A stretch of DNA of 32,000 nt from Actinomycetota bacterium (GCA_019347575.1 JAHWKY010000012.1:34648-66647); one strand, 5' to 3'; shown: positions 13,370 to 30,044, numbered from the stretch's first letter. The notes: generated by a model not told the origin, from the letters alone. Program-made: numbers and translations.

Positions 13370-14589
13370 GCTGCTCCCTCCTCGGCCGCTAGGCGTGTGC
13401 GTCCGGTGAGGAGCTCCCGGATCATCCCTTGCTTCACGGCACGCGTCTTCTCAAGCCTCCCCCGAAGCGCCGTGATCTCATCATCCATGTCCGCGAGGAT
13501 CTCGGTGATTGCCCGCTGCTCAGCCAGCTCAGGTACGCGTAGGGCCATCACCTTGAGGTCTGATGTGCCGACCTCGTCGAAGGTCGAGCCTGACCCTAAG
13601 GCCTCGATGTCCCGGCGCCGTTGCGTCAGCAAGAAATAGACGAACGTGGGGTCTACATCCGAGCCGCAGACGAGAGACTTGAACCCCTGGTTCGTGGCGA
13701 TCGGTTGCTTCGCGAGTTTCAACTCTCCGATGGTGGCACGGGTGCAAAGGAGCAGCGCGCCCTCGGGCAGTAGACGGGCAGATGAAGCCTTCAGGCCCTT
13801 CTTGGTGATGGTTCGAGACGTAGCATCTAGGTACCGGCCATGCCCGGCTGTGATGTCAGTCGGCGTACACCACGGGATGTCACCGTCCCAGTAGGCCGCG
13901 ACACCCGTGTCCGGTGTTCCTCCGGGAACGACGTCGCATAGGTCCCGGAGGGGACGTTCACGCCAGTCCTGGCCAAACGAGGGGAGGCGCAGTGCTTCCG
14001 TCAGGAGCAACTGGCGCGTCGCTGTTAAGACCCCCTGCTTCTTGTCGATGAGGCGTTCGAGCGACTCGATCAGGTCGTCGGTATCTCCAAGAGCTCCCAC
14101 GATCCGCGCCTGCTCCGTTCGGGGCGGGGCCGGTAGCGGCACACGCTCGAACTTCTCCTTCGGCAGGTGAGCGATGCTGGTGCGGGCTGTGAACTCGTCG
14201 AGATGGTCGGTGTCCTGCCAGAAACTGAGGTAGTACATGAGCAGTTCGGGGCGATAGGAGCCTCTGCTGCGCAGACGGTGGATCGCCTTCTGGAAGTAGC
14301 ACTCATCCAGAGACGCATCCCAAATCGCGGCGCGTCCGACCTCACCTCCCTCACAGACCAGAAGGTCTCCAGGCTGGAGTCGGTAACGGGCCACGTCGTT
14401 CGCCGTGAAAGGTGCAGTTGATACCGCATCGAGGTCGATGCGGCCCCACTGGACTGCTGCGTTACCCACGTATGGTTTGTCGGTCCCGGTGCTGCGCGCG
14501 GCGTCGAGCATCTTCCCGAGTTCGAGAGTGAACTCCTCGCCGACTGTGCTCATGGTCCAGTCTGATGGAAGGTCTGTCTGGCCACTCAC
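13366..14589 (-). CDS. hsdS: Type I R-M specificity subunit with two target-recognition domains
   Basis: 407 aa with two TRD-like halves, each followed by a conserved helical spacer (..LPAPPRTEQARIV.., ..VPELAEQRAITEIL..). GTGA overlap with hsdM and ATGA overlap with hsdR. Confidence 0.9.
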   Translation of the reverse strand: MSGQTDLPSDWTMSTVGEEFTLELGKMLDAARSTGTDKPYVGNAAVQWGRIDLDAVSTAPFTANDVARYRLQPGDLLVCEGGEVGRAAIWDASLDECYFQKAIHRLRSRGSYRPELLMYYLSFWQDTDHLDEFTARTSIAHLPKEKFERVPLPAPPRTEQARIVGALGDTDDLIESLERLIDKKQGVLTATRQLLLTEALRLPSFGQDWRERPLRDLCDVVPGGTPDTGVAAYWDGDIPWCTPTDITAGHGRYLDATSRTITKKGLKASSARLLPEGALLLCTRATIGELKLAKQPIATNQGFKSLVCGSDVDPTFVYFLLTQRRRDIEALGSGSTFDEVGTSDLKVMALRVPELAEQRAITEILADMDDEITALRGRLEKTRAVKQGMIRELLTGRTRLAAEEGAA

Positions 14590-17129
14590 ACTGGCACCTC
14601 CACGCCCATCGCTTCGAGGTGCTTGGCGACACGCGCCGAGAGGTCCTCTGTCTCCGCGACGAGCTCAGGAAGCGTGGTGTCGTAGCGCTGCACGAGCTGC
14701 GCGATACGACCGGCCAGGCGAGACACAACACCGTCGATCTCCCTCGACAGCGCCGAACGGAGCGACGAGATCCACTTATCGTCCACGGTCAACCCGCGGA
14801 CCGCCGACTCGTCGAGCTCCTCGTACTTGCCCATCGCTGCCTTGATGAGGTCCGTCTCGGTCTCTCGGAGCGCAGCCTTCTCGGACGTCGCCCCGTCACT
14901 CAGCGCGAGCAACCGGTGCAGAATGTCTAGCTCGGCGAAGTAGCCCTCAGGGTCCTCGACACCGGCCTCCCACGTTCGCGTGCCGAACTTGGTCTTGGCG
15001 ATGCCTTTCGCCTGCTCGTATTCAAGGCTGTCGTCCGGGAACGCGTCGAGGATCAGATCCTTCAGCTCAGCCACGCGGTCCTGAGCGTTGCCTTTCGTCA
15101 CCCCGTTCGAGCCCTCGAGGCCGTCCAGAGCACCGCCTTCGACAGCGTGCTCCTCCTCGAACTCCGCGAGTTCAGCCTCCGCCGTTGCGACCGCTGCCGA
15201 CAGTTCGTCGAGCTGCTCCTGACGGTCAGGGAAGTAGCGGCCGATCAGCAGGCTGGGCGGCAGGAGATCAGCGACGTACTGGACCTTCTTCCGGCCCTTC
15301 TTGATCGCGAAGTCCGCGGCCTCCCTATCGCGCGCCTCCCTGAGCGAACGACCGACCTCCCAGCCCTCGGACACGATGAGGTAGACGTCGTCCTGCATGT
15401 CCGCGTCCCAGAAGTCCATGAACCGCTGGTAGACGTCGTAGCGGCTGACCAGAGGCACGTCGGCGAACCGGTCGAGCAGATCCTCAGCCAGCTCGATCCG
15501 CAACTCCTTCGGCGAGGTGTCCTCATCGATAGACCTGAGCTTCTCACGGTGGGCGTCAGCCCACTGCTCGAACCTCTGGCGGACCTCGGCGGCGAACGCT
15601 TCGAACTGCGGGTGGGACTCCACGGTCTCGCGGACGTGGTCCGCTTCGACGGCGGGTTGCACGTAGCCGTCTCGGCCGGCCGGCTCAAACAGCACCGTCC
15701 GCAGGTCGGGCATGACCTGCCAGTAATGCTCGAGTTCGTCGACGTCGCGGCGGGGGATCCCACCATGCAGGTGGGCGGTCAGGTCGTGGATGTCCTCGCG
15801 GTCGCTGGAGTCGATGTAGCGGGAGATGTTGAGGTTGAAGGCGTTCGCGTCGCTGGCTATCTCCTCGAGCGGTACGAGCCGGGAGTACCCGTCGATGTCC
15901 CGCTGGGTGCGGAAGACGTCGACGATCCTGTGGATGTCCTGCTCACGCAGCCGGTTCTTGTTGCCGTCCCTGATGTACCCGCGGCTGGCATCAATCAGGA
16001 ACACGCCGTGGCGCGTGCCGGCTTCCTTCTTGTCGACCACGACGATGCACGCGGGGATACCAGTTCCGTAGAACAGGTTGGCGGGCAGGCCGATCACGCC
16101 CTTGATCAGGCCGCGCTGCAGCAGGTTGCGGCGAATCACTGCTTCGGCGTTACCGCGGAACAGCACACCGTGGGGTAGGACGACCGCACCGGTGCCAGTG
16201 CTCTTCAGCGACTTGATGACATGAAGGAGAAAGGCATAGTCGCCGTTGCGGGTTGGCGGGACGCCGTACTCGAACCGGTTGAAGTCGTCGTTCTTCGGGT
16301 CGATGCCGTTCGACCAGGACTTCGTCGAGAACGGCGGATTGGCGACGACAAAGTTGAACGTCTTCAGTCGGCCCTTCTCGATGAACTCCGGCGCGGCAAG
16401 GGTGTTGCCTCGAGCAATGTCGTGGGTCGGCTGGCCGTGCAGGAACATGTTCATCCTCGCCAGGGCCCAAGTCGCGTTGTCAATCTCCTGTCCATACACG
16501 GTGACGTTGCCGCCAGCCTCATCGGCCGCCTTCAGCAACAGCGAGCCAGAGCCAGCGGTGGGGTCGTAAACGGTCTCGTCACGCGTGGTGTGCGGTCCGA
16601 TGCCAATAACCTGGGCGATGATCCGGGACACCTCGGCAGGGGTGTAGAACTGGCCCTTACTCTTTCCGGCCTCGCTGGCAAAGTGCCGCATGAGGTACTC
16701 ATAGGCGTCGCCGAGTAGGTCGTCGCCGGCGGCGAGGTTGTCGCTGAAGTCGAGCCGACGGTGGAAGATGTTAACTAGGGCAGACAGCCGGTCGACCTTG
16801 TCCTTGCCGCTGCCGAGCTTGGCGGAGTCGTTGAAGTCGGCCAGGTCGATGACGCCCTGCAGATCATTGGCCTCGGCCAGCCGACCGATCGCCTTGTTGA
16901 TCTTGTCGCCGATCTCCTTGTCGCCCACCAGGCTGTGGATGTAGTCGAACGAGCCCATTTCGGGCACGACGATGAGGCTGTGTGGGTCGGCGGCATGCTT
17001 GTCGGAGACGTACTTCACGAACAGCAGCGTGAGGACGTAGTCCTTGTACTGGGAGGCGTCCATGCCGCCACGGAGCTCGTCGCAGCTGTCCCAAATCGAC
17101 CGGTACAGATCGGACTTCTTGATTGCCAT
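14586..17129 (-). CDS. hsdM: Type I R-M N6-adenine DNA methyltransferase subunit with a long C-terminal extension
   Basis: N-terminal HsdM-type region, AdoMet motif VYDPTAGSGSLL and catalytic motif VVANPPFS. At 847 aa it has a helical extension of roughly 300 aa or more beyond the methylase core. Confidence 0.9.
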   Translation of the reverse strand: MAIKKSDLYRSIWDSCDELRGGMDASQYKDYVLTLLFVKYVSDKHAADPHSLIVVPEMGSFDYIHSLVGDKEIGDKINKAIGRLAEANDLQGVIDLADFNDSAKLGSGKDKVDRLSALVNIFHRRLDFSDNLAAGDDLLGDAYEYLMRHFASEAGKSKGQFYTPAEVSRIIAQVIGIGPHTTRDETVYDPTAGSGSLLLKAADEAGGNVTVYGQEIDNATWALARMNMFLHGQPTHDIARGNTLAAPEFIEKGRLKTFNFVVANPPFSTKSWSNGIDPKNDDFNRFEYGVPPTRNGDYAFLLHVIKSLKSTGTGAVVLPHGVLFRGNAEAVIRRNLLQRGLIKGVIGLPANLFYGTGIPACIVVVDKKEAGTRHGVFLIDASRGYIRDGNKNRLREQDIHRIVDVFRTQRDIDGYSRLVPLEEIASDANAFNLNISRYIDSSDREDIHDLTAHLHGGIPRRDVDELEHYWQVMPDLRTVLFEPAGRDGYVQPAVEADHVRETVESHPQFEAFAAEVRQRFEQWADAHREKLRSIDEDTSPKELRIELAEDLLDRFADVPLVSRYDVYQRFMDFWDADMQDDVYLIVSEGWEVGRSLREARDREAADFAIKKGRKKVQYVADLLPPSLLIGRYFPDRQEQLDELSAAVATAEAELAEFEEEHAVEGGALDGLEGSNGVTKGNAQDRVAELKDLILDAFPDDSLEYEQAKGIAKTKFGTRTWEAGVEDPEGYFAELDILHRLLALSDGATSEKAALRETETDLIKAAMGKYEELDESAVRGLTVDDKWISSLRSALSREIDGVVSRLAGRIAQLVQRYDTTLPELVAETEDLSARVAKHLEAMGVEVPV

Positions 17130-17372: not shown

Positions 17373-18008
17373 TCACCGGGGCTTCCTCCGTCCGGCTGCC
17401 GTTGTCGATGTCGGCCTCTGGATGGATCGGGATGAGCCCGGATCCGGATCGTCGACCACGGCAAGGTCAATCTCGAGCGCTCGCAGTTCGTTGACCTCAT
17501 CGGCCAGCTGTCTCAACTCGCGGTGGACACGATCAAGCTCCGACACAGCATCGTTCGTCTGATCCTGGTGGTCGAGGGAGGGCACCGGGACCTGCAACTG
17601 TGCGACGTCCCGAGCTGCAATCCGCGGTATCCCCGATCCGCTAGATCGGACCTCTACCTGACCCTGGAAGTACGACGATCGGGCCCACACGCCTAGCCAG
17701 CCAGGCGTGACCGGTCCTCCGGCGAGCGCACGCAGGACCACGCAGTCGCTACCGACCACCGCGCCGCGAAGTTCCTCGTCGACCACCCGTGCAGCCCCAG
17801 GTCTGAACGAGACCGCGAGAACAACGTCTCCAGGTTCGAGATCGTACGCCCAGCGCGCCTCGGGTTCGGGAAGGTACTGGGCCGGTGCGTCGTTGTCCGC
17901 GAGTGCCTTGGCGTTCAAGAACCTTGTCCCCGTGTCCGCCAGGTGGTCGTAATCGATCCGAACGCCGCGAGTGATGTCCGCCACGGACTGGAGCGGGACG
18001 CGTCTCAT
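17373..18008 (-). CDS. Half-size (single TRD) type I-like specificity subunit
   Basis: One TRD (LQSVADITRGVRI...) followed by the conserved VPVPSLDHQDQ...ELRQLADEVNELR helix. ATGA overlap with the upstream methyltransferase. Confidence 0.7.
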   Translation of the reverse strand: MRRVPLQSVADITRGVRIDYDHLADTGTRFLNAKALADNDAPAQYLPEPEARWAYDLEPGDVVLAVSFRPGAARVVDEELRGAVVGSDCVVLRALAGGPVTPGWLGVWARSSYFQGQVEVRSSGSGIPRIAARDVAQLQVPVPSLDHQDQTNDAVSELDRVHRELRQLADEVNELRALEIDLAVVDDPDPGSSRSIQRPTSTTAAGRRKPR

Positions 18009-19579
18009 CGCGGACCTCCCGCAATGTCCTGCAGCACGTCGAGCGCGCGACGAACCTTCGGCAGGTCCTCAGCGATACCGGCTCGGAGTACTACGGCACG
18101 CGCTCGGAGAGCATCGACGTCGAAGCCCTCCATCGGGTCTCGGTACCGGCTCGGTGTGATGACCGAGCCTTCCTCCAGGTCCTCTCGCGACAACCGGAAG
18201 GCTCGGCCTGAATGCTCCCTCGGTATCGCCGCCCCGGAGCGAGCGAGGTGCACCAACTCGACGATCAGATCGATCTCATGCTCTTCCAGCTCAGTTGCGT
18301 GGCGCCCGGCGGTTCCCAGGTCCGAGGCGTCGACGAAAAGAATCTCGTCGGTGCTCGCTTGCTTCCGGCTCGAGGACCGCAGAAGCCAGAGGGTCAACGG
18401 AATCGATGTGTTCCTTCGTAGGCGCTCCGGAAGTTGGATGACACCTTCGATGCACCCATCGTCGAGCATCCCCGCCCGGATCTCGCCTTCGCGACCTCCA
18501 GCCCAAGTCGACCTCGGCGGCTGGAGAACGACCGCGCGCCCTGTAGGGCGAAGTGCATGCAGCGCGAGCTGCAGCCACGCAAAGTCGGCAGAGCTCGGAG
18601 GGGGCGCTCCATACGTCCAGCGGTCGTCGAGGTAGAGCTCGGCGTCACCCCACTTCCCGACTCCGTAGGGCGGGTCTAGGACGACCGTGTCTGCCGCCGG
18701 CAACTCCTCGGGCGGCATCCGCAAGCTGTTGCCGACGCGCAGATTCGCGTCAACGTCGTAGATGAAGAACCACGCGCGGGCGTGCCTGATGACGTCCTCG
18801 TTGATGTCGACTCCGAAGAGGGTCGTCGGCGGCTCACTCCTCTCGGCAGCCACTGCAGCCATGAGGAGCAGACCGCCGTTGCCCGCGGCAAGGTCCGCGA
18901 CGGTCTTACCCAGCGGCTCGGCTAGCCGAACCATGAGAAGCGCGAGGTTATCGGGCGTCGAGTACTCCTGCGCGAAGCGGTCTGCTCGGTCCATACGGTC
19001 CGTGAGTTCATGGAAGAGCTCAACGTCAGCAGCTTCCTCAGACAACGCTGCTCGCAGCGCGATAAGGAGCTGGCGCACGGCGTGCCCTGGCGCCTCCGTG
19101 ACTGAGAACCCATCCACGAGTAAGCCCTGGAGTTGTGGGTTGCCCTCCTCTAGGCGACGTCCCACGGCGGCGAGCCGTTCCAACAGCTGCTCGTCCGCGA
19201 CATCTTGCACCGATCCCCACTGATCTTCGGTGGCCAGGTCGAGTCGGCCACTCGCCGCGCGCTGACATGCGACGAGGTACACGAGCGCCGAAAGCATGAA
19301 GTGTCGGAGCTCCTCGGGTGTCCAGCTTCCGCGGACCGCATCGGCGAGCCGCCAGAGGACGGCACTTGGTGGCACGGGGCCGTCGATCTTCTCGTTCTCG
19401 AGGAGCCAGCGCTCGACCTCTGCAAGCGAGAAGAGGGCCCCGCCCGCTGTCTGGAGTCGCGGGGCCGGGAAGTCTTCGTGGCGCTTCCGCCAGTTAGATA
19501 CAGCGGAAGAGCCGACGTCAGCGATCTCGGCGACGTCGCTCAGGCTGACGTAGACAGCCTCTCCGGCGTTGCGGACCAT
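18005..19579 (-). CDS. N6-adenine DNA methyltransferase with an N-terminal excisionase/MerR-type HTH
   Basis: HTH VSLSDVAEIADVGSSAVSNWRKRHEDFPAP, motif I VADLAAGNGGLL and motif IV VVLDPPYG. The start overlaps the NYN gene stop (TGATG). Confidence 0.85.
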   Translation of the reverse strand: MVRNAGEAVYVSLSDVAEIADVGSSAVSNWRKRHEDFPAPRLQTAGGALFSLAEVERWLLENEKIDGPVPPSAVLWRLADAVRGSWTPEELRHFMLSALVYLVACQRAASGRLDLATEDQWGSVQDVADEQLLERLAAVGRRLEEGNPQLQGLLVDGFSVTEAPGHAVRQLLIALRAALSEEAADVELFHELTDRMDRADRFAQEYSTPDNLALLMVRLAEPLGKTVADLAAGNGGLLLMAAVAAERSEPPTTLFGVDINEDVIRHARAWFFIYDVDANLRVGNSLRMPPEELPAADTVVLDPPYGVGKWGDAELYLDDRWTYGAPPPSSADFAWLQLALHALRPTGRAVVLQPPRSTWAGGREGEIRAGMLDDGCIEGVIQLPERLRRNTSIPLTLWLLRSSSRKQASTDEILFVDASDLGTAGRHATELEEHEIDLIVELVHLARSGAAIPREHSGRAFRLSREDLEEGSVITPSRYRDPMEGFDVDALRARAVVLRAGIAEDLPKVRRALDVLQDIAGGPR

Positions 19580-20073
19580 CAGGCGGCTCTCTGTTCCACA
19601 GCCGGAGCCCCCGGGTCACGATCGAGATGGAACGGCACAACGCGGTTCGCCGCCATCCTCAACCGCCTGGACAGGCTCTCCAGAGGAGCCACAACCGTGA
19701 CCGTCACGCCGCGACGCTGGAGGAAGCCAACCGCATCGACGAACAAGCCATCGCCTGAGGCAACCACGACGTGGCCGAAACGTGAGTCCACGCGCTCGCG
19801 CAGGGCCACTTCGGCGAGAGCGAGGTCGGCACCCGAGGTTCCGCGCCGGACGAGGAGCCTCGCAGAACGCCAACTCAGGCCCACTGACACGCCAATCGAG
19901 GGGTTGCACGCCACCACGATGTGATCGCCGTGGCGCAGGATGCGAAGGCGACGGTACGCAGTAACGCAGCGGGCGACGTCGTGGTTCGTCGGCGAGCCAG
20001 AGCCAACGAGGTTCTCGACGTCGACCAAGTGAAGGGTTCTCGGGGCAGTTGCGGTGTCCATGACGTGAACCAT
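19579..20073 (-). CDS. NYN (LabA-like, PIN-related) nuclease domain protein
   Basis: LHLVDVENL, GADLALAE and VASGDGLFVD match the NYN/LabA acidic motifs. The start is probably ATG 20073 or 20061 rather than TTG 20097. Confidence 0.7.
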   Translation of the reverse strand: MVHVMDTATAPRTLHLVDVENLVGSGSPTNHDVARCVTAYRRLRILRHGDHIVVACNPSIGVSVGLSWRSARLLVRRGTSGADLALAEVALRERVDSRFGHVVVASGDGLFVDAVGFLQRRGVTVTVVAPLESLSRRLRMAANRVVPFHLDRDPGAPAVEQRAA

Positions 20074-20085
20074 ATCGTGCCGTAT

Positions 20086-20123
20086 CTGTGAAATCAACTC
20101 ACAGCTCTGACTTCATTTCACAG
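20086..20123. promoter_or_regulatory. Inverted repeat in the AT-richer divergent promoter region (candidate operator)
   Basis: ctgtgaaat (20086-20094) and atttcacag (20115-20123) form 9-bp perfect arms. A second 6-bp inverted repeat, acacaa/ttgtgt (20157-20176), overlaps the start of the plus-strand operon. Confidence 0.4.
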
Positions 20124-20172
20124 GCGGTTCGTCCAGGGTCTCTTGCTATCCGAATAACACAACGATAATATT

Positions 20173-20613
20173 GTGTCTGTGATACCGGACTTTGGCGGGG
20201 CCAATTTGCCCCCGGGTGTACATGCGGCCTCGTGGCACGAGGTCGATCAGCGCTTCGGCTGGAACCAACGGCGGCGATCGCTACTCGAAGGGCTTCGAGA
20301 CGCGCTCGACGAGCTAGCACGGGCGGGCTGCAGGAGAGCGTGGCTCGACGGCAGCTTCGTGACCGCGAAGGAGCAGCCGGGGGACTACGACCTCGCTTGG
20401 GACCCGACCGACGTCGACCTCACTTCCCTCGATGCGGTGCTCCTTGACTTGGATCCACCGCGCGAAGGTCAGAAGGCGAAGTACAGGGGCGACCTCTTGC
20501 CGAACATCATCGAGTCCGACAGCGGCATGCCGTTGCTGGACTTCTTTCAGCAAGACGCGGTGACTGGGCGCAAGCGAGGGATTGTCGAGATCGATTTGGA
20601 GGGACTCGGATGA
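20173..20613 (+). CDS. Minimal nucleotidyltransferase (Pol-beta fold, DUF6932-like)
   Basis: WLDGSFVTAKEQPGDYDLAW fits the G-S...D-x-D NTase motif. 146 aa. The stop overlaps the next start (ATGA). The start could be GTG 20173 or GTG 20179. Confidence 0.6.
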   Translation: MSVIPDFGGANLPPGVHAASWHEVDQRFGWNQRRRSLLEGLRDALDELARAGCRRAWLDGSFVTAKEQPGDYDLAWDPTDVDLTSLDAVLLDLDPPREGQKAKYRGDLLPNIIESDSGMPLLDFFQQDAVTGRKRGIVEIDLEGLG

Positions 20614-22052
20614 TCAAGAACGACCGGCAGTTCGGGATCGTCCGCAGCAGGTCGGAGCGCCTCGAGCGCCTTCAGGATGACCTGCTGGAACGTCTTGGAC
20701 GTTCCCCCGCGGACGCGAGCAAGCTTGAGCTTGAGCTCAGAGCCACTCGTGCAGAGATCCGACGCATGCGTGGAGAGCTCGGGGACTACCAACTCCTGAA
20801 GGAAGGCAAGGCCCCCATCGGGTCGGCCCGAACCCTTGAGGACGTATCACGACTTCTCGTTCGTGCGCGCATCGCTGCAGGACTTACGCAAGCCGACCTC
20901 GCCGAACGATTGGACCTGAAGGAACAGCAGATCCAACGGTACGAGGCGACCGACTACGAGTCGGCAAGTCTCAGCCGACTCATAGAGGTGGGCGAAGCTC
21001 TCGATCTCCAGCTTTGCGCCGAGGCGGGTTCGGCGGGAGCCTCCTTCGACGCGACCGGCTGGCTTCGGAACTTGCGAGACGACGGGATCGACGAATGGTT
21101 TCTCGACCGGGGCTTCGGCGCCGTGGACGCGAACGACCCCGACTCGGTAACGAGAACGATCGCGCGCTTGTCTCACGTCTTCAGGCGCACACCTGAAGAC
21201 GTGATGGCTGGACGGGTTGTAGACCCGGGATTCGAGGCGGTTCCCGCGGCGTTCAAGCGCTCCAAGAGAGCCAGTCGTCCGCGAATCGCAGCGACCAGTG
21301 CGTACGTCGACTACCTGGTCGGCCTCATTCTCCGGGCCACACCACCCGCGGCGACAGACCTGCCGGCCAACCCTGTCGAGGTGCATCAGCGTCTGGGCGG
21401 ACTGGGGCGCCCCGTGACCTTCGAAGCGGCAGTCAACTTCTTCTGGGCGTCCGGTGTCCCCATTCTGCCCCTGAGCCTCTCAGGCGGTTTCGACGCTGCA
21501 CTGTGGCGCCGAGACCAGCGAGATGTCGTGGTCTTGAACTCCACTCGGGAGCTTGAGTCTCTGTGGTTGTTCATCCTGTTGCACGAAGGTGGCCACATCA
21601 GCGATCCAGAACTCGCGGGCACGCGCTGGCTGGAGACAGACCCTGGCCACGATCCGGACATGGCGGCTGAGCGCGAGAGACATGCAAATGAGTGGGCTTC
21701 CGCCACAATCTTCGGGGGGCGCAGCGAAGCGCTGTTCGACGAAGTGAGGCAGAAGGCCGAGAACCGGCTACCGATGATGCAACGAGCGGTCCGGTATGTA
21801 GCCCGTCACGAGAACGTCGATGTAGGACCGCTCGCTCTCAACGTCGCTTACCGTCTTGGCGAAGAAGGAGTGGACTGGTGGGGAGCCGCGATGAGCCTCC
21901 AGAGCGGAGACGGAAGGCCGTGGCAGACTGCCCGAGACGCGCTCGTTGCTCGTCTTGACATGTCAGCTCTCAAGCCGCTTGATGCCGATCTGCTTGCCCG
22001 GGCGCTTGACCTCTCACCGAGCGACGGAATTGATTCAGGAACCGAACGATGA
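20610..22052 (+). CDS. XRE-family HTH fused to an ImmA/IrrE-type HExxH metallopeptidase
   Basis: An N-terminal helical segment, then the HTH RIAAGLTQADLAERLDLKEQQIQRYE, then LFILLHEGGHISD (HExxH) in the C-terminal half. ATGA overlaps on both sides. Confidence 0.8.
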   Translation: MIKNDRQFGIVRSRSERLERLQDDLLERLGRSPADASKLELELRATRAEIRRMRGELGDYQLLKEGKAPIGSARTLEDVSRLLVRARIAAGLTQADLAERLDLKEQQIQRYEATDYESASLSRLIEVGEALDLQLCAEAGSAGASFDATGWLRNLRDDGIDEWFLDRGFGAVDANDPDSVTRTIARLSHVFRRTPEDVMAGRVVDPGFEAVPAAFKRSKRASRPRIAATSAYVDYLVGLILRATPPAATDLPANPVEVHQRLGGLGRPVTFEAAVNFFWASGVPILPLSLSGGFDAALWRRDQRDVVVLNSTRELESLWLFILLHEGGHISDPELAGTRWLETDPGHDPDMAAERERHANEWASATIFGGRSEALFDEVRQKAENRLPMMQRAVRYVARHENVDVGPLALNVAYRLGEEGVDWWGAAMSLQSGDGRPWQTARDALVARLDMSALKPLDADLLARALDLSPSDGIDSGTER

Positions 22053-23110
22053 TGATCCAGACGCCACTCAACGGAGCCGTCTGGGTGCACGCTGGCCTCA
22101 AGCCGCCAGATCACATCGGGCGGGTGGCAACCGCCGCCGGTGGTGTCGTTCTCCAAGGCCCGCCGAAGTACCGACAGGCTCGCGAGGTCCTGGAGTCCGG
22201 TATCCCCGCGATGCTGCAGCACGATGCGGATCTCGAACCAGCACCCCAGCCCACACTCTTTGGTCCCGATGAGTCCTGGTTAAGCGAACAGCACTCGTGC
22301 GTGGTCGTAAGCAGCCGCGCAGGCTGGGTGCCGCCGCCTTCTACTGAGGGACGTGAACGGCTCCGGCAGGCCGTCCTCACTTCGCGGACGAGCCACGCTC
22401 ATGCGACACGGTCGGAACCGAGTCGGCCATTCGTAGCCATGGTCGCACTGTCCCACAAGTGGTTGACGTCGCGGGAGTCCCGCAGGGAAGTGATCTCCGC
22501 GCTTCGATCCGTCGGCGCCCCGATCGGGCTGATGCTCGAGAAGGCCATGGATCCCCTCGACACCGTCCAGGCAGTGGAGGGGCTCGTCACGCTCGTGACC
22601 GAGCTTGAGAGCGTCGCTGTCTTTCGGTGTGATCACGGCGCTCTCGGAGCAATGGCGTTCGGAGCGACGGGAGGCTCTATCGGGATCGGAACCTCGACTC
22701 GCCACTTCCTCGACCCCGATGACAACTCCTGGGCCGATTTCACGGATCGCACCCCACGCGTGTTCCTTCCCTTCATCATGGGATGGTGGAAAGGCTCGCG
22801 CCTCGCGTACTACGAGGAAGACCCGATGTTTCGGTCTTGCTCATGCCCCGTCTGCCGGGGCGCCAGCCTGGCTCGCTTCCAGGACGAAGCCCTGCGGGCG
22901 GAGGCCGACGCTCACTCCGTCGCGTGTTGGGCTGATCTCGCGCGCCGGCTTCAGGACGAAGATCCCGGACACCGCGCAGACGCGTGGCTGCGACTCTGTC
23001 AGACCGCGTACGACAATCTTGATGCGATCGAAGACACGAGCGGATTGCTTCAGGCACCGTCGAGGCAGCTCAAGGCCTGGCTTCGCTTCGCCGGAGTTCC
23101 AGCGGTTTGA
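22049..23110 (+). CDS. TGT (tRNA-guanine transglycosylase) / DpdA-like protein
   Basis: CSCPVCRGASLARF (encoded from 22838) parallels the TGT zinc motif CxCxxCRxxSxA, with a His 20 residues after the third Cys. FGATGGSIGIGT parallels the TGT G-x-A-I-G-G-L-S-V-G-E strand. Similarity was judged by eye only. Confidence 0.5.
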   Translation: MMIQTPLNGAVWVHAGLKPPDHIGRVATAAGGVVLQGPPKYRQAREVLESGIPAMLQHDADLEPAPQPTLFGPDESWLSEQHSCVVVSSRAGWVPPPSTEGRERLRQAVLTSRTSHAHATRSEPSRPFVAMVALSHKWLTSRESRREVISALRSVGAPIGLMLEKAMDPLDTVQAVEGLVTLVTELESVAVFRCDHGALGAMAFGATGGSIGIGTSTRHFLDPDDNSWADFTDRTPRVFLPFIMGWWKGSRLAYYEEDPMFRSCSCPVCRGASLARFQDEALRAEADAHSVACWADLARRLQDEDPGHRADAWLRLCQTAYDNLDAIEDTSGLLQAPSRQLKAWLRFAGVPAV

Positions 23111-23712
23111 CGAAGAAGCGCCCCGTACACGATTTCGAGTAGTCGCGCCCGCCGGAGACTCGGTGAAGGAATGGCAGTGGGTTCGGCGAGTTCCTCGACC
23201 TGGTCGCCATCGAAATGCACGAGTCCTAGACCACATCGGTTTGCGACCGACACAGCCCTTGAGAGGTCTCGAGGTCGATGCCGCACCACGAGAGTCGTCG
23301 CGGCATCCCGCGCCAGTACACCAACTCGGCCGGCCGCGCGCCAGCTATCGGACAGCTTGACGATCTCGATCAATCTGAGGGGTGCCCGTAGCTCTCGGGT
23401 GATGCCCGTGGATGAGCAACTGGCTAGCCCGGGCGGTGCGCAGTCCAAGAATCCCGCCACGACAGGGTCGACCTCATCCCAGGGCACTTCGAGACCGACA
23501 GGGAGAGTCACGACCGCGTCGAGGAGCGTGTAGCTCGTGACCGCTCCGAGTTGGTGGACCGACCGACGGTCGACTTCAAACCAGTCAGGGCGCACGACGG
23601 CCGAGAAGCGCACGCCCGCCCATGAGACGTGATGAACGAACTCACCAGTCATGCCGAGTCGACCACCTATCAGTTGAGCATCCACGACGGGCTTCCGCTT
23701 GCAGGTAGACAC
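23050..23712 (-). CDS. Hypothetical protein, no recognisable domain
   Basis: The composition is protein-like (FVHHVSWAGVRFSAVVRPDWFEV..). It converges on the TGT-like gene and overlaps its 3' end by 61 nt. The start is uncertain (23712 or an internal Met). Confidence 0.45.
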   Translation of the reverse strand: MSTCKRKPVVDAQLIGGRLGMTGEFVHHVSWAGVRFSAVVRPDWFEVDRRSVHQLGAVTSYTLLDAVVTLPVGLEVPWDEVDPVVAGFLDCAPPGLASCSSTGITRELRAPLRLIEIVKLSDSWRAAGRVGVLARDAATTLVVRHRPRDLSRAVSVANRCGLGLVHFDGDQVEELAEPTAIPSPSLRRARLLEIVYGALLRQTAGTPAKRSQALSCLDGA

Positions 23713-24144
23713 GTTACCGAACGTAGGTTCGGCTCATTGGCTGACTCTAGCAACTTCAGCCACACCCTCGCAGCGTGTCCGGTAGAAGGGCGTGTACTCG
23801 GGAGGCGGAACTGCACGATCGGCGCGACGCATGCTGACGTGTGCATTGGCCTCAACACGCACGGTAACGTCCAGACCGAACCCCGACTCCCCTCTCGGTA
23901 CCGCCGCGCCCCTCAGCCCGCTCGCTACCACTCCCCGCAATCCACAGACCCCGCCCCGCCCCGAAACACAGGCGCCGCGCGAGCCTGATCCTGGGCCGGT
24001 CGACGGGTCCCGCCGCGAGTCGGAACCGAGGAACGTGGCCGACATGGCCCCGGCCGAGCTCGTGACGGCTGGGATGGGCACGCTCCGGCCACGGCCTGTG
24101 GACAGTCAGTGGCCTGAGCCATCGGTCGGAGCTACGCCTGCCCC

Positions 24145-24753
24145 GTGGACGAGGCGACAGAAGCGATCCGAGCGCAGTTGCGCGCTGCGCGGCAGCGGGC
24201 CGGCCTGACCCAGGATCAGCTCGCGGCGCGGATGGGCTGCACGCAGTCCGCGGTGTCCGACCTCGAGGGTGGGCGGACCCGGCCGCTGTACCAGACGGTC
24301 GCCCGCAACGCCGCCGCGCTCGGCGGCGAGGTCACACTCGCCCTACCCGGGGCCGATCCCCTCGCACGGGCGCGTGCCGACATCGAGCGTTCCCTCACCG
24401 AGGGGGACCCATCCCGCGCCTTCCGCGCCGTTCTCCGGATGTTGTGCGACCTCGACCGGCGGGATCGGATCGACGCATCCCGTGCCCTCCGTCTCGAACC
24501 GGCAACGACGGGATCGCCGCGGTGGGACGCACTCCTGGCCGCCGCCGTCGAGCACGCGACCGCACGGATCGGCGTCGGTCCACCGTCGTGGACCGCCGCC
24601 CCGTCGAAGTTCCTCGACCGTTGGTGGTTCCCCGTCGAGGACATGATCGGTCGCCTCCCGACCCGACTCGCGGCCTACCTCCTCGCCAACGCCCCCGGCG
24701 AGTTCGCGGCACGCGGCGTCTTCGTGGATCGCGCGAGTCTGCGGACCTGGTGA
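24145..24753 (+). CDS. XRE-family HTH protein with a C-terminal extension (antitoxin-like)
   Basis: LRAARQRAGLTQDQLAARMGCTQSAVSDLEGG. GTG start at 24145. Confidence 0.7.
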   Translation: MDEATEAIRAQLRAARQRAGLTQDQLAARMGCTQSAVSDLEGGRTRPLYQTVARNAAALGGEVTLALPGADPLARARADIERSLTEGDPSRAFRAVLRMLCDLDRRDRIDASRALRLEPATTGSPRWDALLAAAVEHATARIGVGPPSWTAAPSKFLDRWWFPVEDMIGRLPTRLAAYLLANAPGEFAARGVFVDRASLRTW

Positions 24754-24838: not shown

Positions 24839-25090
24839 TCAGCTCGCCCGGGCCGTCGGCTCGCTGTGGCGGTAGAGGGTCTCGGGGGAGATGTCCGATC
24901 CGTTCGGCCACACCAGCGTGCCGAGCTCCGGATCGACGCGAACCGCACGGAAGAGCTCGTCATCGGTGGCGATGTCCTCGAACGCGCGTCCCCAGAGGAA
25001 GCGGGACGACGCAGGCGTGGTGGAGTGCCTCGCGTCGGGCAACGACCCATCGACGCACGTGCCGCCCGTGACGCGGAGGCAGCGTTCCAA
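24839..25090 (-). CDS. DUF2442 family protein
   Basis: FEDIATDDELFRAVRVDPELGTLVWPNGSDISPETLY closely matches the DUF2442 C-terminal consensus. The N-terminal half is less typical. Confidence 0.6.
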   Translation of the reverse strand: MERCLRVTGGTCVDGSLPDARHSTTPASSRFLWGRAFEDIATDDELFRAVRVDPELGTLVWPNGSDISPETLYRHSEPTARAS

Positions 25091-25208
25091 CGATCACCCT
25101 CCGGGCGCGGCATCCACAGCCCAGCCACCGATGGATGCGCGGCCCTGCGTTCGAATCGGTGAACATCGGGGCCCCGACGGAGCCGACACACGAGGAGCAG
25201 AAGCGCCG

Positions 25209-25721
25209 ATGTTCGAGACCCGCGAGGCCGTGATCGATGCACTCGAGCGACTCGCGAACGCGCTCCACGATGAGCGACTCGAGGGCCGGATCTTCGTCGT
25301 CGGCGACACCGCGATGACGCTGGCCTACGGTCGTGACGATCACGCCGGAGACATCGAGGCGCTGTTCTCGCCTTCGGACATGGTCAGCGAGGTAGCGGCG
25401 CGGCTGGGGAGCGAGCACGGGTGGGGCGAGACGTGGCTGACCGACGCCGTCGTGGGAGGTGCTTTCCGGAACGAGTCGGACGCGACGACGCTGTTCGCGC
25501 GGCGAGGACTGACCGTGCAGGTCGCCTCACCCCGCTACCTCTTCGCGATGAAGGCCGTCACGGCCCGGATCGAACGCGACGCCGCTGACCTCGCCGCGCT
25601 GTACCCGCTCTGCGGCTTCGTTGACGTGGAGGCCGCCATCACGCACGTGCGCGCGACGGCGCCTGCCGGCCTGCTGCCTCCGAAGGGCGAGATGCTCATG
25701 CGGGCGGTCTTGGGCCCGTGA
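25209..25721 (+). CDS. Nucleotidyltransferase-fold protein (DUF6036/AbiEii-like, toxin-like)
   Basis: Internal ATG 25209 begins MFETREAVIDALERL... VVGDTAMTLAYGRDDHAGDIEALF resembles the G-x-x-A...D-x-D/E NTase motif. The upstream part of the 24891 ORF is S/R/P-rich and was rejected. Confidence 0.55.
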   Translation: MFETREAVIDALERLANALHDERLEGRIFVVGDTAMTLAYGRDDHAGDIEALFSPSDMVSEVAARLGSEHGWGETWLTDAVVGGAFRNESDATTLFARRGLTVQVASPRYLFAMKAVTARIERDAADLAALYPLCGFVDVEAAITHVRATAPAGLLPPKGEMLMRAVLGP

Positions 25722-25927
25722 CGTGGTCGCGTTCGCTGTTCGGGAGCGCTCTACAGCGGCAGCTTCCTCAGATCTGCCGATCGGTGCCACCGGTGAGGTT
25801 GGTCCATGTCCGTTCGCACATACGGCATCACGGGAGGGCTCATCCTGAGCGCACGAGGACCGCTTCATGTTCTATCGGTCATGCGAGGGTACTCTGGGGC
25901 GGCCCCGCATCCCGAAGGCGATGTCGC

Positions 25928-26191
25928 ATGAACGACCGGACATACGATACGGCGGCTGGGCGGTTAGGTGACCAGCTCCGCCGACGTCGGCGCGCGTTGC
26001 ACCTCACCCAGGAGGAGGTCGCCGAACTGGCCGGCACCACTCAGCGCACCGTCTCGGTGCTCGAGTCGGGCAAGCCCACCGCCCGCCTCGACGTCCTGGT
26101 CGCCGTCGCCGAGGCGCTCGGCCTGCAACTGGTGGCGCTGCCCCACGACGTGGTCGGGCGGCTGCGCGTCGACGACGAGACCCCGTCGTGA
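25928..26191 (+). CDS. hipB: HipB-like XRE HTH antitoxin
   Basis: ATG 25928. LRRRRRALHLTQEEVAELAGTTQRTVSVLESGK. The stop overlaps the hipA start (GTGA). Confidence 0.8.
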   Translation: MNDRTYDTAAGRLGDQLRRRRRALHLTQEEVAELAGTTQRTVSVLESGKPTARLDVLVAVAEALGLQLVALPHDVVGRLRVDDETPS

Positions 26192-27423
26192 CCGCGGAGG
26201 GTCGCGCCCCGATCCCCGATGATGCGCTGACACCGGTCGATGTGTACAAGGCGGGAAGCCTCGCGGCACACCTGTGGCGGCTCGGCGACACGGTCGTGTT
26301 CCGCTACCGCGCGGACTACGTCGGGTCCGGGGCGCCCCCCGTGGGGTTCAGCCTCGGCCTCACCACGCGTGAGGTGGCGACGCCGCGGATGCAGCTGCCC
26401 GCGTTCTTCGCCGGGCTGCTGCCCGAAGGCGAGTCCCGGCGACGCGACCTCCAGCGCGCGTACCACCTCGCTGAGGATGACGAGCTCGGTCTGCTCGCCG
26501 TGGTCGGGGCCGACACCGTCGGTGACGTGCAGGTCGTACCCGCCGGCGAGCAGCTGCCTGCCGACGACGTGCCCACCGAACCGCCCGCCTGGGAGACGGT
26601 GTCGTTCCGCGAGCTGTGGCGCCAGCTGCCCGGACCCCGCTCGCGGTCGGCGCTGCCCGGCGTGCAGCCGAAGATGTCCGCGCACCCGCGCGCACTCGCT
26701 GGCGGCGCCGTGGGCCCGGTGATCCTCAAGTTCGCGATCGAGGGCTGGCACGGGGCGTTGAGCAACGAGCGCTTCTTCATGGCGCACGGCCCCGACGTCG
26801 GCCTCGCGGCGCCTGAGGTCGCGGTGGTCGCCGACCGGGACGGCGAGCAGGCGCTCCAGGTCGCGCGCTTCGACCGCACCGTCGACGGCGGGGAGTTGCT
26901 GCGGCACCCACAGGAGGACGCCACCCAGGTCCTGGGGCTCCGCCCCGGCGAGAAGTACGACCCCGATGCGCGCACGGTCGTGGACGCGCTCGCCAGCCGG
27001 TGCGCGTCACCGCGGCTGGCCGCCCGTGACCTGTTCCACCAACTCGTGTACTCGTACGCGGTGGGCAACAACGACGTCCACGCCAAGAACCTGTCGATCC
27101 AGCGCGAGCCGCGTTCGGGGTTGTGGGTCGTCACGCCGATCTACGACGTCCTCCACACCTGGCCCTACGAGGGCGACCACCGCTTCCTCCCGGCCGTGCG
27201 TCCTGACGGGCCCCACGACAGCGTCACGCTGCGGTACTGGCTCGACCTGGCCGCGGACATCGACCTGCCGGACAAGGCGGCACGCCGCATCGTCGATCAG
27301 GTCACCGCAGGCGTCGGCGAGCTCCTCGATCTCGCGGCCGAGCAGATCACGCTTCCCGCCGACTGGATGCGTGACCTGCAGCGCACGATCCGACGGCGCG
27401 TGCGCGACCTCGGCGGCCGCTGA
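26188..27423 (+). CDS. hipA: HipA-family serine/threonine kinase toxin
   Basis: LPGVQPKMS and YAVGNNDVHAKNLSI motifs. 411 aa. Confidence 0.9.
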   Translation: MTAEGRAPIPDDALTPVDVYKAGSLAAHLWRLGDTVVFRYRADYVGSGAPPVGFSLGLTTREVATPRMQLPAFFAGLLPEGESRRRDLQRAYHLAEDDELGLLAVVGADTVGDVQVVPAGEQLPADDVPTEPPAWETVSFRELWRQLPGPRSRSALPGVQPKMSAHPRALAGGAVGPVILKFAIEGWHGALSNERFFMAHGPDVGLAAPEVAVVADRDGEQALQVARFDRTVDGGELLRHPQEDATQVLGLRPGEKYDPDARTVVDALASRCASPRLAARDLFHQLVYSYAVGNNDVHAKNLSIQREPRSGLWVVTPIYDVLHTWPYEGDHRFLPAVRPDGPHDSVTLRYWLDLAADIDLPDKAARRIVDQVTAGVGELLDLAAEQITLPADWMRDLQRTIRRRVRDLGGR

Positions 27424-27598: not shown

Positions 27599-28807
27599 AT
27601 GCGAGGCCGCTACGAGCGACGGACGTGGCAGCACGACCCCGCCGCGTACGCCCCGCCGCGCTACCGACGCGCCTGTGGATACGAGGTGTTCCTACCCGAA
27701 CCCCTCGCCGGGTTCGCTCCCGGGCTGTCGGCGGCCACCGTCGCGACGTTGTCCGAAGCGGAGCGGGCCCTTCAAACGGTCGGCGGAGCTTCCGAGCGCG
27801 CGCTGGCTCCGCTGGCGCGGCTGCTGCTGCGGACGGAATCGATCGCCTCATCCAAGGTCGAGGGGCTCCACGTGGATGCTCGCGACCTCGCCCGCAGCGA
27901 GGCGCGAGCCGACACCGGCGCCAAGGTCGGCCCGACCGTGGCTGAGGTGCTGGGCAACATCGACGCCATGCAGCTCGCGATCGAGGAGGCGGTGACCTCC
28001 GAACGCTTCGATCGGAGCCAGATCCTGGCCATCCACCGTCAACTGATGTCGCGAGCACCCAACCCGCGCAACGCCGGACGGATCCGGACGCAGCAGAACT
28101 GGGTCGGCGGCAACGACTTCACCCCCTGCGGTGCCGAGTTCGTCCCCCCACCCCCCGAACTCGTCGATCCGCTGCTGGAGGACCTCTGCGCGGCGATCAC
28201 CGATGACTCGATGGCGCCGCTGGTGCAAGCCGCGTTGGTCCACGCACAGTTCGAGACCATCCACCCCTTCGACGACGGCAACGGCCGGACCGGACGGACC
28301 CTCATCCACGTGGTGCTCCGGCGGCGGCGCATCACCCGCTCGTACGTGCCTCCGATCAGCGTGCTGTTCGCCCGCGGCCGTGATCGCTACATCGCCGGGC
28401 TGACCGGGTACCGGCACGAGGAGGTGGAGGCGTGGGTCGAGCAGTTCGCCGCCGCGGCGGCGCGCGCGGCGCTGCTGGCGAGCACCTACCTGGACGCCAC
28501 CGAAGCGATGCAGCGACGCTGGCAGGCCCAGCTCCGCGCCCGCTCGGATCCGCGCGCCGACGCCGCCGCCTGGTCCGTCATCGAGGCGCTTCCGGCACAC
28601 CCCGTCATCACCGCGGCCGTAGCGACAGCGGCGACGGGACGCGCGAAGGCTGCCGTCTACGCCGCACTGGAGCAGCTCGAAGACGCCGGCGTGCTGCGTC
28701 CTCTGAGCGGTGGCCGCCGCAACCGCTCCTGGGAGGCCGCCGGACTGCTCGACCTCGTCGCTCAGCTGGAGGAAGGCCAGAAGCCGCAGGCGGAACCGCA
28801 TGAGTAG
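27599..28807 (+). CDS. Fic family protein (AMPylase-type)
   Basis: Canonical Fic motif HPFDDGNGRTGR. 402 aa with a C-terminal wHTH-like tail. Confidence 0.9.
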   Translation: MRGRYERRTWQHDPAAYAPPRYRRACGYEVFLPEPLAGFAPGLSAATVATLSEAERALQTVGGASERALAPLARLLLRTESIASSKVEGLHVDARDLARSEARADTGAKVGPTVAEVLGNIDAMQLAIEEAVTSERFDRSQILAIHRQLMSRAPNPRNAGRIRTQQNWVGGNDFTPCGAEFVPPPPELVDPLLEDLCAAITDDSMAPLVQAALVHAQFETIHPFDDGNGRTGRTLIHVVLRRRRITRSYVPPISVLFARGRDRYIAGLTGYRHEEVEAWVEQFAAAAARAALLASTYLDATEAMQRRWQAQLRARSDPRADAAAWSVIEALPAHPVITAAVATAATGRAKAAVYAALEQLEDAGVLRPLSGGRRNRSWEAAGLLDLVAQLEEGQKPQAEPHE

Positions 28808-28885: not shown

Positions 28886-29455
28886 TTAGTTCCGGCCGGT
28901 CAGGGAGCCGTTCTCACGCAGTAGGGCCACGAGACGTTCGAGGCGCTGGCGCTTCGCCGCTGGTTCAGCACTCATCGCAGCCGCGCGACGTGACAGCGTG
29001 ACGCCATCGAGCAGGTCGGCGTGCCACAGAGCCTCGACGAACCGATGGTCGTGGGGTCGGTCGGCGGCGAGCTTGGCGAGCGCGAGGTCGTGCACCTCCG
29101 GGAAGTAGACGTCGGTCACCTCGCCGGCGGCATCGTCCGTCTTCAGCTTCACAACGCGACCTTCCCACCCGTCCGGCAAGCTGGCCTCGTCGAGCGTCAT
29201 TCCGTCGGCGTGGTAGGTGAACTGGCGCGCGAACGGCGACATGAACCCGATGGCTCCGTCGACGCGGCTCGCGGCATCGCCGACCGGGTCATCGAGGATC
29301 ACGACGTCCGCCTCGATGGAGCGCACGACCTCGGGTGGGAGCTCCTCGACGTCGAACGAACCGTGGATCGCCTGGCTACCCAGGATCAGAACGCGACGAA
29401 CGCCGGCGACGTCAGCCGCCGCGCGCGCGACGTGGAAGACCTCGCTACGCCGCAT
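28886..29455 (-). CDS. Nucleotidyltransferase-fold protein (toxin-like partner of the upstream HTH gene)
   Basis: ATG 29455 overlaps the upstream stop by 11 nt. VLILGSQAIHGS...SIEADVVI fits the G-S...(D/E)-x-D pattern. The 29566 start gives a junk N-terminus. Confidence 0.55.
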   Translation of the reverse strand: MRRSEVFHVARAAADVAGVRRVLILGSQAIHGSFDVEELPPEVVRSIEADVVILDDPVGDAASRVDGAIGFMSPFARQFTYHADGMTLDEASLPDGWEGRVVKLKTDDAAGEVTDVYFPEVHDLALAKLAADRPHDHRFVEALWHADLLDGVTLSRRAAAMSAEPAAKRQRLERLVALLRENGSLTGRN

Positions 29456-29970: not shown

Positions 29971-30044
29971 CCGGGGTCTCGATTTCCACAGCCGACGGAG
30001 GCACCGTCGTCGGTGCCGGCGACCCGTGGCCGCACCCTGGCGGC

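Follow-up and report, generated by a model that had tools for sequence, protein, structure and literature searches.

We analyzed 32,000 nucleotides from an Actinomycetota bacterium (GCA_019347575.1 JAHWKY010000012.1:34648-66647; hereafter the window, to which all coordinates are relative) and found that the functional unit that begins near position 20173 is a cassette of four genes (g1 to g4), the core of which is formed by the last two, g3 and g4. The cassette, a cargo of integrative and mobile elements in Actinomycetota, is best filed among protease-gated toxin-antitoxin or defense modules, with an undescribed putative effector pair of tRNA-guanine transglycosylase (TGT) fold, its function being predicted from sequence. 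An earlier prediction, made from the sequence of the same region (the original prediction), had taken g1, g2, and g3 for a coupled trio of a nucleotidyltransferase, a helix-turn-helix (HTH) peptidase, and a TGT/DpdA-like protein involved in DNA modification or defense. Its domain calls and its view that the composition is undescribed held, but the trio as a unit and the DpdA-type modification did not. Specifically, the trio was overturned by the g3 + g4 core, to which the overlooked convergent gene g4 belongs, and by the finding that the nucleotidyltransferase is swappable.

The open reading frame (ORF) listing placed three co-directional genes on the plus strand, at 20173-20613, 20610-22052, and 22049-23110. 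As originally described, these are joined by ATGA stop/start overlaps, which can be read directly in the sequence at 20610-20613 (ggATGAtc, g1/g2) and 22049-22052 (cgATGAtg, g2/g3). The fourth gene, at 23050-23712 on the minus strand, converges on g3 and shares 61 nt with its 3' end. In a comparison of ~25 related loci (L numbers below), g3 and g4 were the invariant core, and their pairing was retained from 100% down to ~22% identity. Homologs of g4 occupied the same position in 22 loci, and more divergent forms were present in L031, L033, L034, and L036 and on plasmids of Tsukamurella and Arthrobacter. In nearly all related loci, the two genes shared 26-106 nt at their 3' ends; the ends abutted in L025 and lay 22 nt apart in L036. 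In the window, g3 ends in ...QLKAWLRFAGVPAV and g4 in ...QTAGTPAKRSQALSCLDGA within the overlap, and both frames are conserved.

An exhaustive hidden Markov model (HMM) search expanded the g3 family to 615 clusters at 50% identity. The named members were all from Actinomycetota, including Streptomyces, Amycolatopsis, Nocardiopsis, Acidimicrobiia, and the plasmids of Tsukamurella and Arthrobacter, and all of them were annotated as hypothetical by NCBI. One member carries the UniRef label "tRNA-guanine(15) transglycosylase-like domain-containing."

The AlphaFold (AF2) model of g3, built from a 25-sequence alignment (pLDDT 90.6, pTM 0.90), displays an eight-stranded barrel, then a hairpin, and then a zinc subdomain, which is the strand order of TGT. 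Foldseek searches of the PDB returned only two matches at E < 1e-3, both of them full-length matches to Z. mobilis TGT (6rkt, E 2.5e-6, TM-score 0.57; and 4fsa), followed by generic TIM barrels at TM-scores of ~0.3, and a phage "tRNA guanine transglycosylase" was among the top three matches to viral models (BFVD). Hence, the TGT-like assignment, the boldest in the original prediction, was borne out by the predicted fold. The hhalign comparison with a profile that combined E. coli tgt with four related sequences gave an E-value of 7e-4, the probability being a modest 27%, and placed the CxCxxC...HN of g3 exactly on C302/C304/C307 and H333-N334 of E. coli Tgt. The residues concerned in the window are C264, C266, C269, and H289 (CSCPVC...H289), in agreement with the resemblance to the TGT zinc site that had been proposed.

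Six residues (R193, D195, G212, R218, H219, and H289) were 100% conserved among 57 diverse members of the g3 family, and D168, P169, and C269 were conserved in at least 91%. The first five lie at the C-terminal ends of barrel strands, with D195 and R193 on the strand neighboring that of G212, and presumably form the active site. The zinc ligands were more variable: H289 and C269 (96%) were retained, but the complete CxCxxC was present in only 75 of the 116 scorable sequences, with CxxxCC in 18 of 116 and two-Cys forms in the remainder. After strand 3, the majority of members read hhhD-[PG]-x-x-Y, at the spacing of the TGT motif L-T-D-S-G-G-Y, to which Asp102 and the base-stacking Tyr106 belong in Z. 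mobilis TGT. No counterpart of Z. mobilis TGT D156 was found in g3.

Sequence models did not recover this relationship. There was no match for g3 in Pfam or NCBIfam (E <=1 for both), PADLOC, or PHROG, including PF01702 (TGT) and the Tgt/DpdA models, and the same held for curated models in 82 family members (25 + 57). The g3 profile matched PDB sequences only as noise (aspartate decarboxylase, maleylacetate reductase, E >=0.1), without a TGT among them. Judged from its modeled structure, g3 has the fold of the TGT superfamily but cannot be demonstrated to belong to the Tgt or DpdA enzyme families. Two details of the original prediction were lost in these comparisons. Its equation of GGSIGIG with the TGT barrel strand GGLAVGE does not stand, because hhalign pairs GGLAVGE with ALGAMAFGA, and by strand order GGSIG corresponds to the last barrel strand. 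The label DpdA-like is not sustained as membership either, given the lack of any DpdA or TGT sequence-model match, the position of DpdA 7ui4 outside the top 50 Foldseek matches, and the absence of DpdB, DpdC, and the Dpd helicases from every locus.

For g4, no match was detected in Pfam, NCBIfam, PADLOC, PHROG, or the PDB, including by profile searches. Its ancestral ATG is ACG in the window, and translation probably starts at a GTG six codons downstream. A small gene that overlaps g4 often precedes it and is either MazE/AbrB-like or an HTH gene of ~90 aa. In L011 (3280-3570), L002 (3796-4071), and L001 (2342-2611), all on the minus strand, a conserved ~90-aa protein with the motif ...ETVRxL..NP...FF.VAA.ARA.G.SLD overlaps the g4 start, and the L011 version is weakly winged-HTH-like. 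An 87-aa, weakly HTH_3-like gene is at this position in L033 (7641-7904, minus strand), a MazE/AbrB-like gene overlaps the g4 start on the Tsukamurella plasmid, and a 46-aa ORF is among the small overlapping genes in loci that lack g2 (L033, L034/L035, and the Tsukamurella plasmid). The frequent presence of a small DNA-binding gene that precedes and overlaps g4 suggests that the dose of g4 is tightly controlled and, together with the convergent overlap, that g4 may be dosage-sensitive and functionally bound to g3. The arrangement of the small gene before g4 also resembles that of controller proteins in restriction-modification (R-M) systems or of antitoxins in toxin-antitoxin (TA) systems.

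Unlike the g3 + g4 core, the front of the cassette varied. In every subtype A (type A) locus, which is the window's type, a DUF6932 gene is followed by a ~480-aa HTH-peptidase, g3, and the convergent g4; the gene order was the same in every related type A locus with enough flank, a co-occurrence far beyond chance. Subtype B (~28% identity) has a HigB-like toxin, a ~363-aa HTH-peptidase that shares the LLHExxH region, g3, and g4. This toxin, of the RelE family (PF05015, E 1e-12, 99 aa), takes the place of g1 in L006, L011, L003, and L002, while the first slot is empty in Nocardiopsis. In the distant L036, it holds an unrelated 237-aa protein (269-982), and a 62-aa ORF (2063-2251) is inserted between the HTH-peptidase and a 447-aa g3; neither the 237-aa protein nor the ORF had a Pfam match. 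Furthermore, g2 is missing from L033, from L034/L035, which adjoin Wadjet, and from the Tsukamurella plasmid. The proposed association of nucleotidyltransferase, HTH-peptidase, and TGT-like protein therefore recurs in type A, but the nucleotidyltransferase is replaced or missing elsewhere.

The product of g1 matches PF22014 (DUF6932) in Pfam at E 5e-35, with 121 bits against a gathering cut-off of 27, and the PADLOC candidate model PDC-M63A at E 4e-11; searches of the PDB with g1 returned coiled-coil noise only. Because its Pol-beta motif (G58-S59...D69-x-D71, that is, G-S...D-x-D) is invariant in six homologs, g1 looks like an active minimal nucleotidyltransferase, and the Pol-beta call made originally agrees with both the family match and the motif. 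By comparison of homologous loci, the start is more likely GTG 20179, which gives 144 aa, the length of the homologs, than GTG 20173 (146 aa). Membership in the MNT-HEPN toxin-antitoxin systems was considered and rejected, since no HEPN domain was found in g2, g3, g4, or the neighbors.

The g2 protein combines an N-terminal coiled-coil-like extension, an XRE-type HTH_3 domain at aa 85-134 (Pfam, E 1.6e-7), and a peptidase region at ~aa 264-400. An HExxH (H325/E326/H329), E356, and a following AN.(F/W)A were invariant across both subtypes and aligned distant orthologs, and constitute the signature of ImmA/IrrE (M78). Profile searches of the PDB with g2 matched 9vzy (an HTH-peptidase protein, E 1e-5), CapP 7t5t, and IrrE 3dte/8slm, and the Nocardiopsis ortholog (L031) matches Peptidase_M78 at E 9e-20. 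The assignment of gene 2 as an XRE HTH joined to an ImmA/IrrE-type peptidase with HEGGH is upheld on all these grounds. The protein has the combination that defines RmrA of RosmerTA systems, an XRE-HTH with an ImmA/IrrE M78 domain.

Candidate regulatory sites were identified at both ends of the cassette. In six type A loci, ACACAAC-N6-(G/A)TTGTGT is the sole conserved stretch upstream of g1; it stops 2-5 nt short of the start codon, and a TAnnnT hexamer that resembles a -10 element is embedded in it. It occurs once in the window (0.01 expected), and exact single matches lie just upstream of g1 in L004, L009, L010, L012, L017, and L018. As the palindrome, with its TAnnnT, ends so close to the start, we propose a leaderless transcript with a putative operator over its promoter. 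In subtype B, a different palindrome, TTCACC-N5-GGTGAA, is found at the same place, which suggests that operator and HTH protein change together. At the g4 start, CGAAC-N4-GTTCG is present once in the window (0.07 expected), and in most type A loci it reads GAACATATGTTC, centered on the ATG. No terminator-like site or inverted repeat was found between g3 and g4; each transcript should therefore run antisense into the other gene. We found neither a sigma-70 consensus promoter, the absence of which is expected in a high-GC actinobacterium, nor a useful terminator. Additionally, a 19-nt inverted repeat (CTGTGAAATCAACTCACAG / CTCTGACTTCATTTCACAG, 84% complementary; 20086-20123) straddles the start of a gene for an NYN-domain protein, just upstream of the g1 operator.

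Neighboring genes differed in every related locus, with the four-gene cassette alone remaining constant, a pattern that points to the cassette as mobile defense or addiction cargo. The neighbors comprised R-M genes, including MmeI-like ones, BREX, DUF499/DUF1156, Wadjet, CRISPR, Abi_C, a zeta toxin, and TA genes, and, from mobile elements, integrases, TrwC relaxases, and Tn7-like genes.

From this architecture and its folds, motifs, co-occurrence, operators, and setting, we infer toxicity, a trigger, a substrate for g3, and a role for g4, and tentatively favor a RosmerTA-like, protease-gated toxin or defense module with the TGT-fold nucleic-acid enzyme g3 and its partner g4 as the conserved effector pair. 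The leaderless operon would open with a swappable toxin-type gene, here the DUF6932 nucleotidyltransferase and elsewhere the HigB-like RNase, which g2 would neutralize. A g2 dimer would also sit on the palindrome over the -10/start region and repress the operon, until the peptidase is switched on, for instance by phage infection or damage to DNA, and removes or inactivates the HTH in the manner of ImmA on ImmR and CapP on CapH. Translationally coupled to g2, g3 would then remove or exchange a base in tRNA or DNA, and g4 would be its cognate neutralizer or specificity partner. The net function would be phage defense by growth arrest, stabilization of the element, or both. The exchange of nucleotidyltransferase for HigB-like toxin beside an HTH-ImmA protein fits the front end of this module to the RosmerTA rule. 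A nucleic-acid substrate for g3 is suggested by the retained zinc subdomain, which Cap10 has lost, by the D-x3-Y of most of the family, and by its enzyme-like invariant polar residues. We rank g3 as toxin with g4 as neutralizer slightly higher than g3 as protective modifier with g4 as dangerous partner.

Several observations weigh against this favored reading. The similarity of g3 to TGT is remote, as seen in the TM-score, the hhalign probability, and the lack of a sequence-model match, and no member of the family is annotated. In the window's g3 subfamily, L-Q-H replaces the TGT-like D...Y base-pocket motif, so that its chemistry may differ, and the Asp that serves as nucleophile in TGT (Ec D264 / Zm D280) lies in a region that hhalign leaves unaligned; by strand order, its equivalent may fall on the invariant G212. 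The role assigned to g4 is a guess: the protein has about five invariant residues (G33, R50, R188, E193, and P207), and its AF2 model, from four sequences, has a pLDDT of 44 and no recognizable fold. PADLOC RmrA models cover only the HTH of g2 (best E 6e-5). L026, L033, and L034 lack both g1 and g2, so the core can do without the protease gate. Finally, type II TA pairs are seldom arranged convergently.

In broader terms, the convergent g3 + g4 could be the core of an undescribed immune or addiction system of Actinomycetota, a formulation that we also hold tentatively. Here, a new TGT clade would excise or exchange bases in DNA or tRNA, acting as a toxic effector or setting an R-M-like self-mark for g4 to read, and would be wired to interchangeable regulators, either an RmrA-like HTH-protease with a nucleotidyltransferase or HigB, or C-protein/MazE-like repressors.

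The self-marking variant, if taken alone, seems unlikely, yet it ranks above the other alternatives. Under it, g3 would work in a DpdA-like manner, swapping a base of the host's DNA for host preQ0 or for some other free base, and g4 would restrict or read unmarked DNA, with the small HTH/AbrB gene as C protein and g1-g2 as an attached RosmerTA-type regulator. In L026, L011, L002, L001, L033, and L034, the layout, read as a modifier converging on a dangerous gene preceded by a small overlapping DNA-binding gene, is an arrangement known from C-regulated type II R-M systems such as Esp1396I. The g3/g4 pair is obligate, and the low conservation and lack of detectable homologs of g4 are typical of restriction endonucleases, but its few invariant residues do not include a nuclease motif. 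TGT homologs mark DNA in Dpd, which relies on host queuosine genes (PMC10164549; PMC12839542); g3, however, is not DpdA by sequence, 7ui4 is outside its top 50 structural matches, and no locus encodes a DpdB-like ATPase. Moreover, one would not expect the gene for a constitutive self-mark to follow a toxin and an inducible repressor-protease.

Three further explanations appear improbable. In the first, g3 resembles Cap10 in acting on protein: it would bind or transfer a protein that carries a nucleobase, its substrate being g4 or g1, and the modification would regulate that protein, as with type IV CBASS deazaguanylation or in type VII TA systems. There is precedent for a TGT-fold protein remodeled for a protein partner beside a nucleotidyltransferase (10.1101/2025.04.06.647259), and g4 would suit as a poorly conserved partner without apparent enzymatic signature. 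Nevertheless, no locus has a QueC-like Cap9, g1 is neither a CD-NTase nor conserved with g3, and the zinc site that Cap10 lost is kept in g3.

The second, which we consider about as doubtful, is an element-maintenance circuit in which g2 is an ImmR/ImmA-type switch for excision or transfer and g3 and g4 serve, for example, in entry exclusion or anti-restriction. ImmA/ImmR is the founding example of such a switch (PMC10440598), an integrase adjoins g4 in L009, L010, and L011, and relaxase, FtsK, SSB, and primase genes are near in L004, L007, and L009. Most loci, however, have no adjacent integrase, and nothing but the four-gene set is shared from one locus to the next; the window's own integrase lies 7 kb off, on the far side of HipBA and Fic, and a HigB toxin in the first slot fits TA or defense better.

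The third, no more probable, is that g3 is a dead TGT-fold scaffold that senses nucleic acid or a ligand, the effectors being g1, g4, or both. The loss of D...Y in the window's subfamily and the unalignable nucleophile Asp favor this, and QTRT2 is a known non-catalytic TGT paralog. The R193, D195, G212, R218, and H219 of g3 are nonetheless fully conserved and placed like an active site. Last, that the trio of the original prediction forms a 7-deazaguanine DNA-modification unit is very improbable: although translational coupling links the three genes, which occur together in type A, and g3 has the TGT fold and zinc motif, the distribution data argue against it, with a nucleotidyltransferase that is dispensable or HigB-replaced and g4 as the invariant partner, and the window's g3 subfamily lacks D...Y and no locus has Dpd accessory genes.

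Turning to the rest of the window (Table 1), it corresponds to a lower-GC island, with a GC of ~0.59-0.66 compared with 0.69-0.74 in the flanks. The cassette lies between a type I R-M system and a methyltransferase (MTase) gene on one side and HipBA and Fic on the other, consistent with the defense island between R-M and TA modules recognized in the original prediction. The three overlapping minus-strand genes at 17373-20097 possibly form an R-M-like or MTase-NYN module of an unusual kind, and the operon at 3927-7299 may be another uncharacterized defense candidate. No Rfam family and no tRNA gene, the latter a candidate attachment site, were found in the window. Queuosine and Dpd genes were likewise absent from it, as had been noted for preQ0 synthesis genes, DpdB/DpdC, and the Dpd helicases and as Pfam scans of the neighbors affirmed. 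The absence of preQ0 genes is not informative either way, because Dpd uses the host queuosine pathway (PMC10164549).

Table 1. Features of the cassette, followed by other features of the window.
Feature	Position	Strand	Remarks
Palindromic operator-like element, ACACAAC-N6-(G/A)TTGTGT	20157-20176	+	sequence conservation in type A loci
g1, DUF6932, putative minimal Pol-beta-type nucleotidyltransferase	20179-20613	+	144 aa; variable first-gene ("toxin") slot
g2, XRE-HTH/ImmA-IrrE (M78) fusion	20610-22052	+	480 aa; HTH nt 20862-21011, HEGGH nt 21582-21596, E356 nt 21675-21677
g3, TIM barrel of predicted TGT-superfamily fold, C-terminal Zn subdomain	22049-23110	+	353 aa; Cys motif nt 22838-22855, H289 nt 22913-22915
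g4, obligate g3 partner	23050-23712	-	220 aa; same position across g3 family
g3/g4 3'-end overlap	23050-23110		61 nt; both reading frames conserved
Second palindrome, CGAAC-N4-GTTCG	23718-23731		at g4 start
NucS_C-like genes	2607-3506 and 8310-9398		adjoin the operon at 3927-7299
Three-gene operon (291, 165, 676 aa)	3927-7299	-	no Pfam match but weak coiled-coil; in low-GC island
YgjP-like/SprT-like metallopeptidase gene	9550-10365	-	overlaps downstream end of hsdR
Type I R-M	hsdR 10298-13369, hsdS 13366-14589, hsdM 14586-17129	-	complete
211-aa protein, weak single Methylase_S half-domain	17373-18008	-	
HTH_17 + N6-adenine MTase	18005-19579	-	524 aa
NYN-domain protein	19579-20097	-	
HTH_31 protein	24145-24753		
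Unannotated ORF	24891-25721		276 aa; after HTH_31 gene
HipBA (HipB-like HTH + HipA)	25718-27423		
Fic	27599-28807		
DUF6036 nucleotidyltransferase	28886-29566	-	
Tyrosine integrase	30013-31341		

Enzymes of the TGT family were long seen as tRNA modifiers only, and have since been found to mark DNA (Dpd) and to handle a nucleobase-protein conjugate (type IV CBASS). The g3 clade would be a third such group, invisible to sequence models and present in defense islands, including those of cultivable Streptomyces, Nocardiopsis, and Amycolatopsis. If it is active, bacterial immunity or the addiction functions of plasmids and integrative and conjugative elements would acquire a new kind of base chemistry on nucleic acids, and RosmerTA-type protease switches would gain a defined multi-gene output. 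Literature searches (DUF6932; TGT-like with toxin-antitoxin; TGT with ImmA) returned no description of the module, and neither g3 nor g4 matched PADLOC, Pfam, NCBIfam, or PHROG, in line with the original statement that no described system has this composition. A BREX-related "BRC" system with a TGT was considered and is a different system from the cassette.

Bacterial Tgt (PF01702) is the sole significant full-length structural match of g3 and shares with it the strand order, the aligned C-x-C-x-x-C...H-N, and, in most of the g3 family, the D-x3-Y after strand 3. In contrast, g3 is ~30-40 aa shorter, lacks a sequence-profile match and identifiable D156/D280 counterparts, varies in its zinc ligands across the family, and has QH for D...Y in the window's subfamily. 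Dpd is alike in having a TGT-superfamily enzyme in the context of a defense island, possibly acting on a host-made base, but DpdB (a ParB-like ATPase), DpdC (DUF328), and the DpdD-K helicases and nucleases are absent from the window neighbors and from the gene tables of ~15 related loci. Type IV CBASS (Cap9/Cap10) likewise encodes a TGT-fold protein beside a nucleotidyltransferase in an anti-phage context. Its Cap10 is TGT-like without a zinc site (10.1101/2025.04.06.647259), whereas g3 keeps the zinc motif, the DUF6932 protein g1 is dispensable and not a CD-NTase, and there is no Cap effector. Membership in type IV CBASS was rejected, as neither a CD-NTase nor a QueC-like Cap9 was found in the window or related loci and g3 is not zinc-less. 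The PADLOC candidate PDC-M63 resembles the cassette through the match of g1 to PDC-M63A, but g2, g3, and g4 do not match PDC-M63 models.

Parallels also exist with the protease-switch systems. In CapH/CapP, ImmR/ImmA, and DdrO/IrrE, an HTH repressor is inactivated by an M78 protease and an adjacent operon is derepressed, whereas g2 fuses HTH and protease in 480 aa, with extra N- and C-terminal extensions. RosmerTA pairs one HTH-ImmA hub antitoxin with many unrelated toxins, is toxin-first in 58% of cases, and resides in defense islands and on mobile elements (PMC10440598); the XRE-HTH + M78 protein and the interchangeable toxins recur here. The position of g1 ahead of g2 is compatible with a toxin-first order. 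RosmerTA differs in comprising two genes, while in the cassette g2, where present, is followed by a TGT-fold gene coupled to it and then by a fourth gene in convergent orientation, and the g3 + g4 pair also occurs without g2. The front end of the cassette (g1-g2) fits known protease-switch logic, and the g3 + g4 back end is new.

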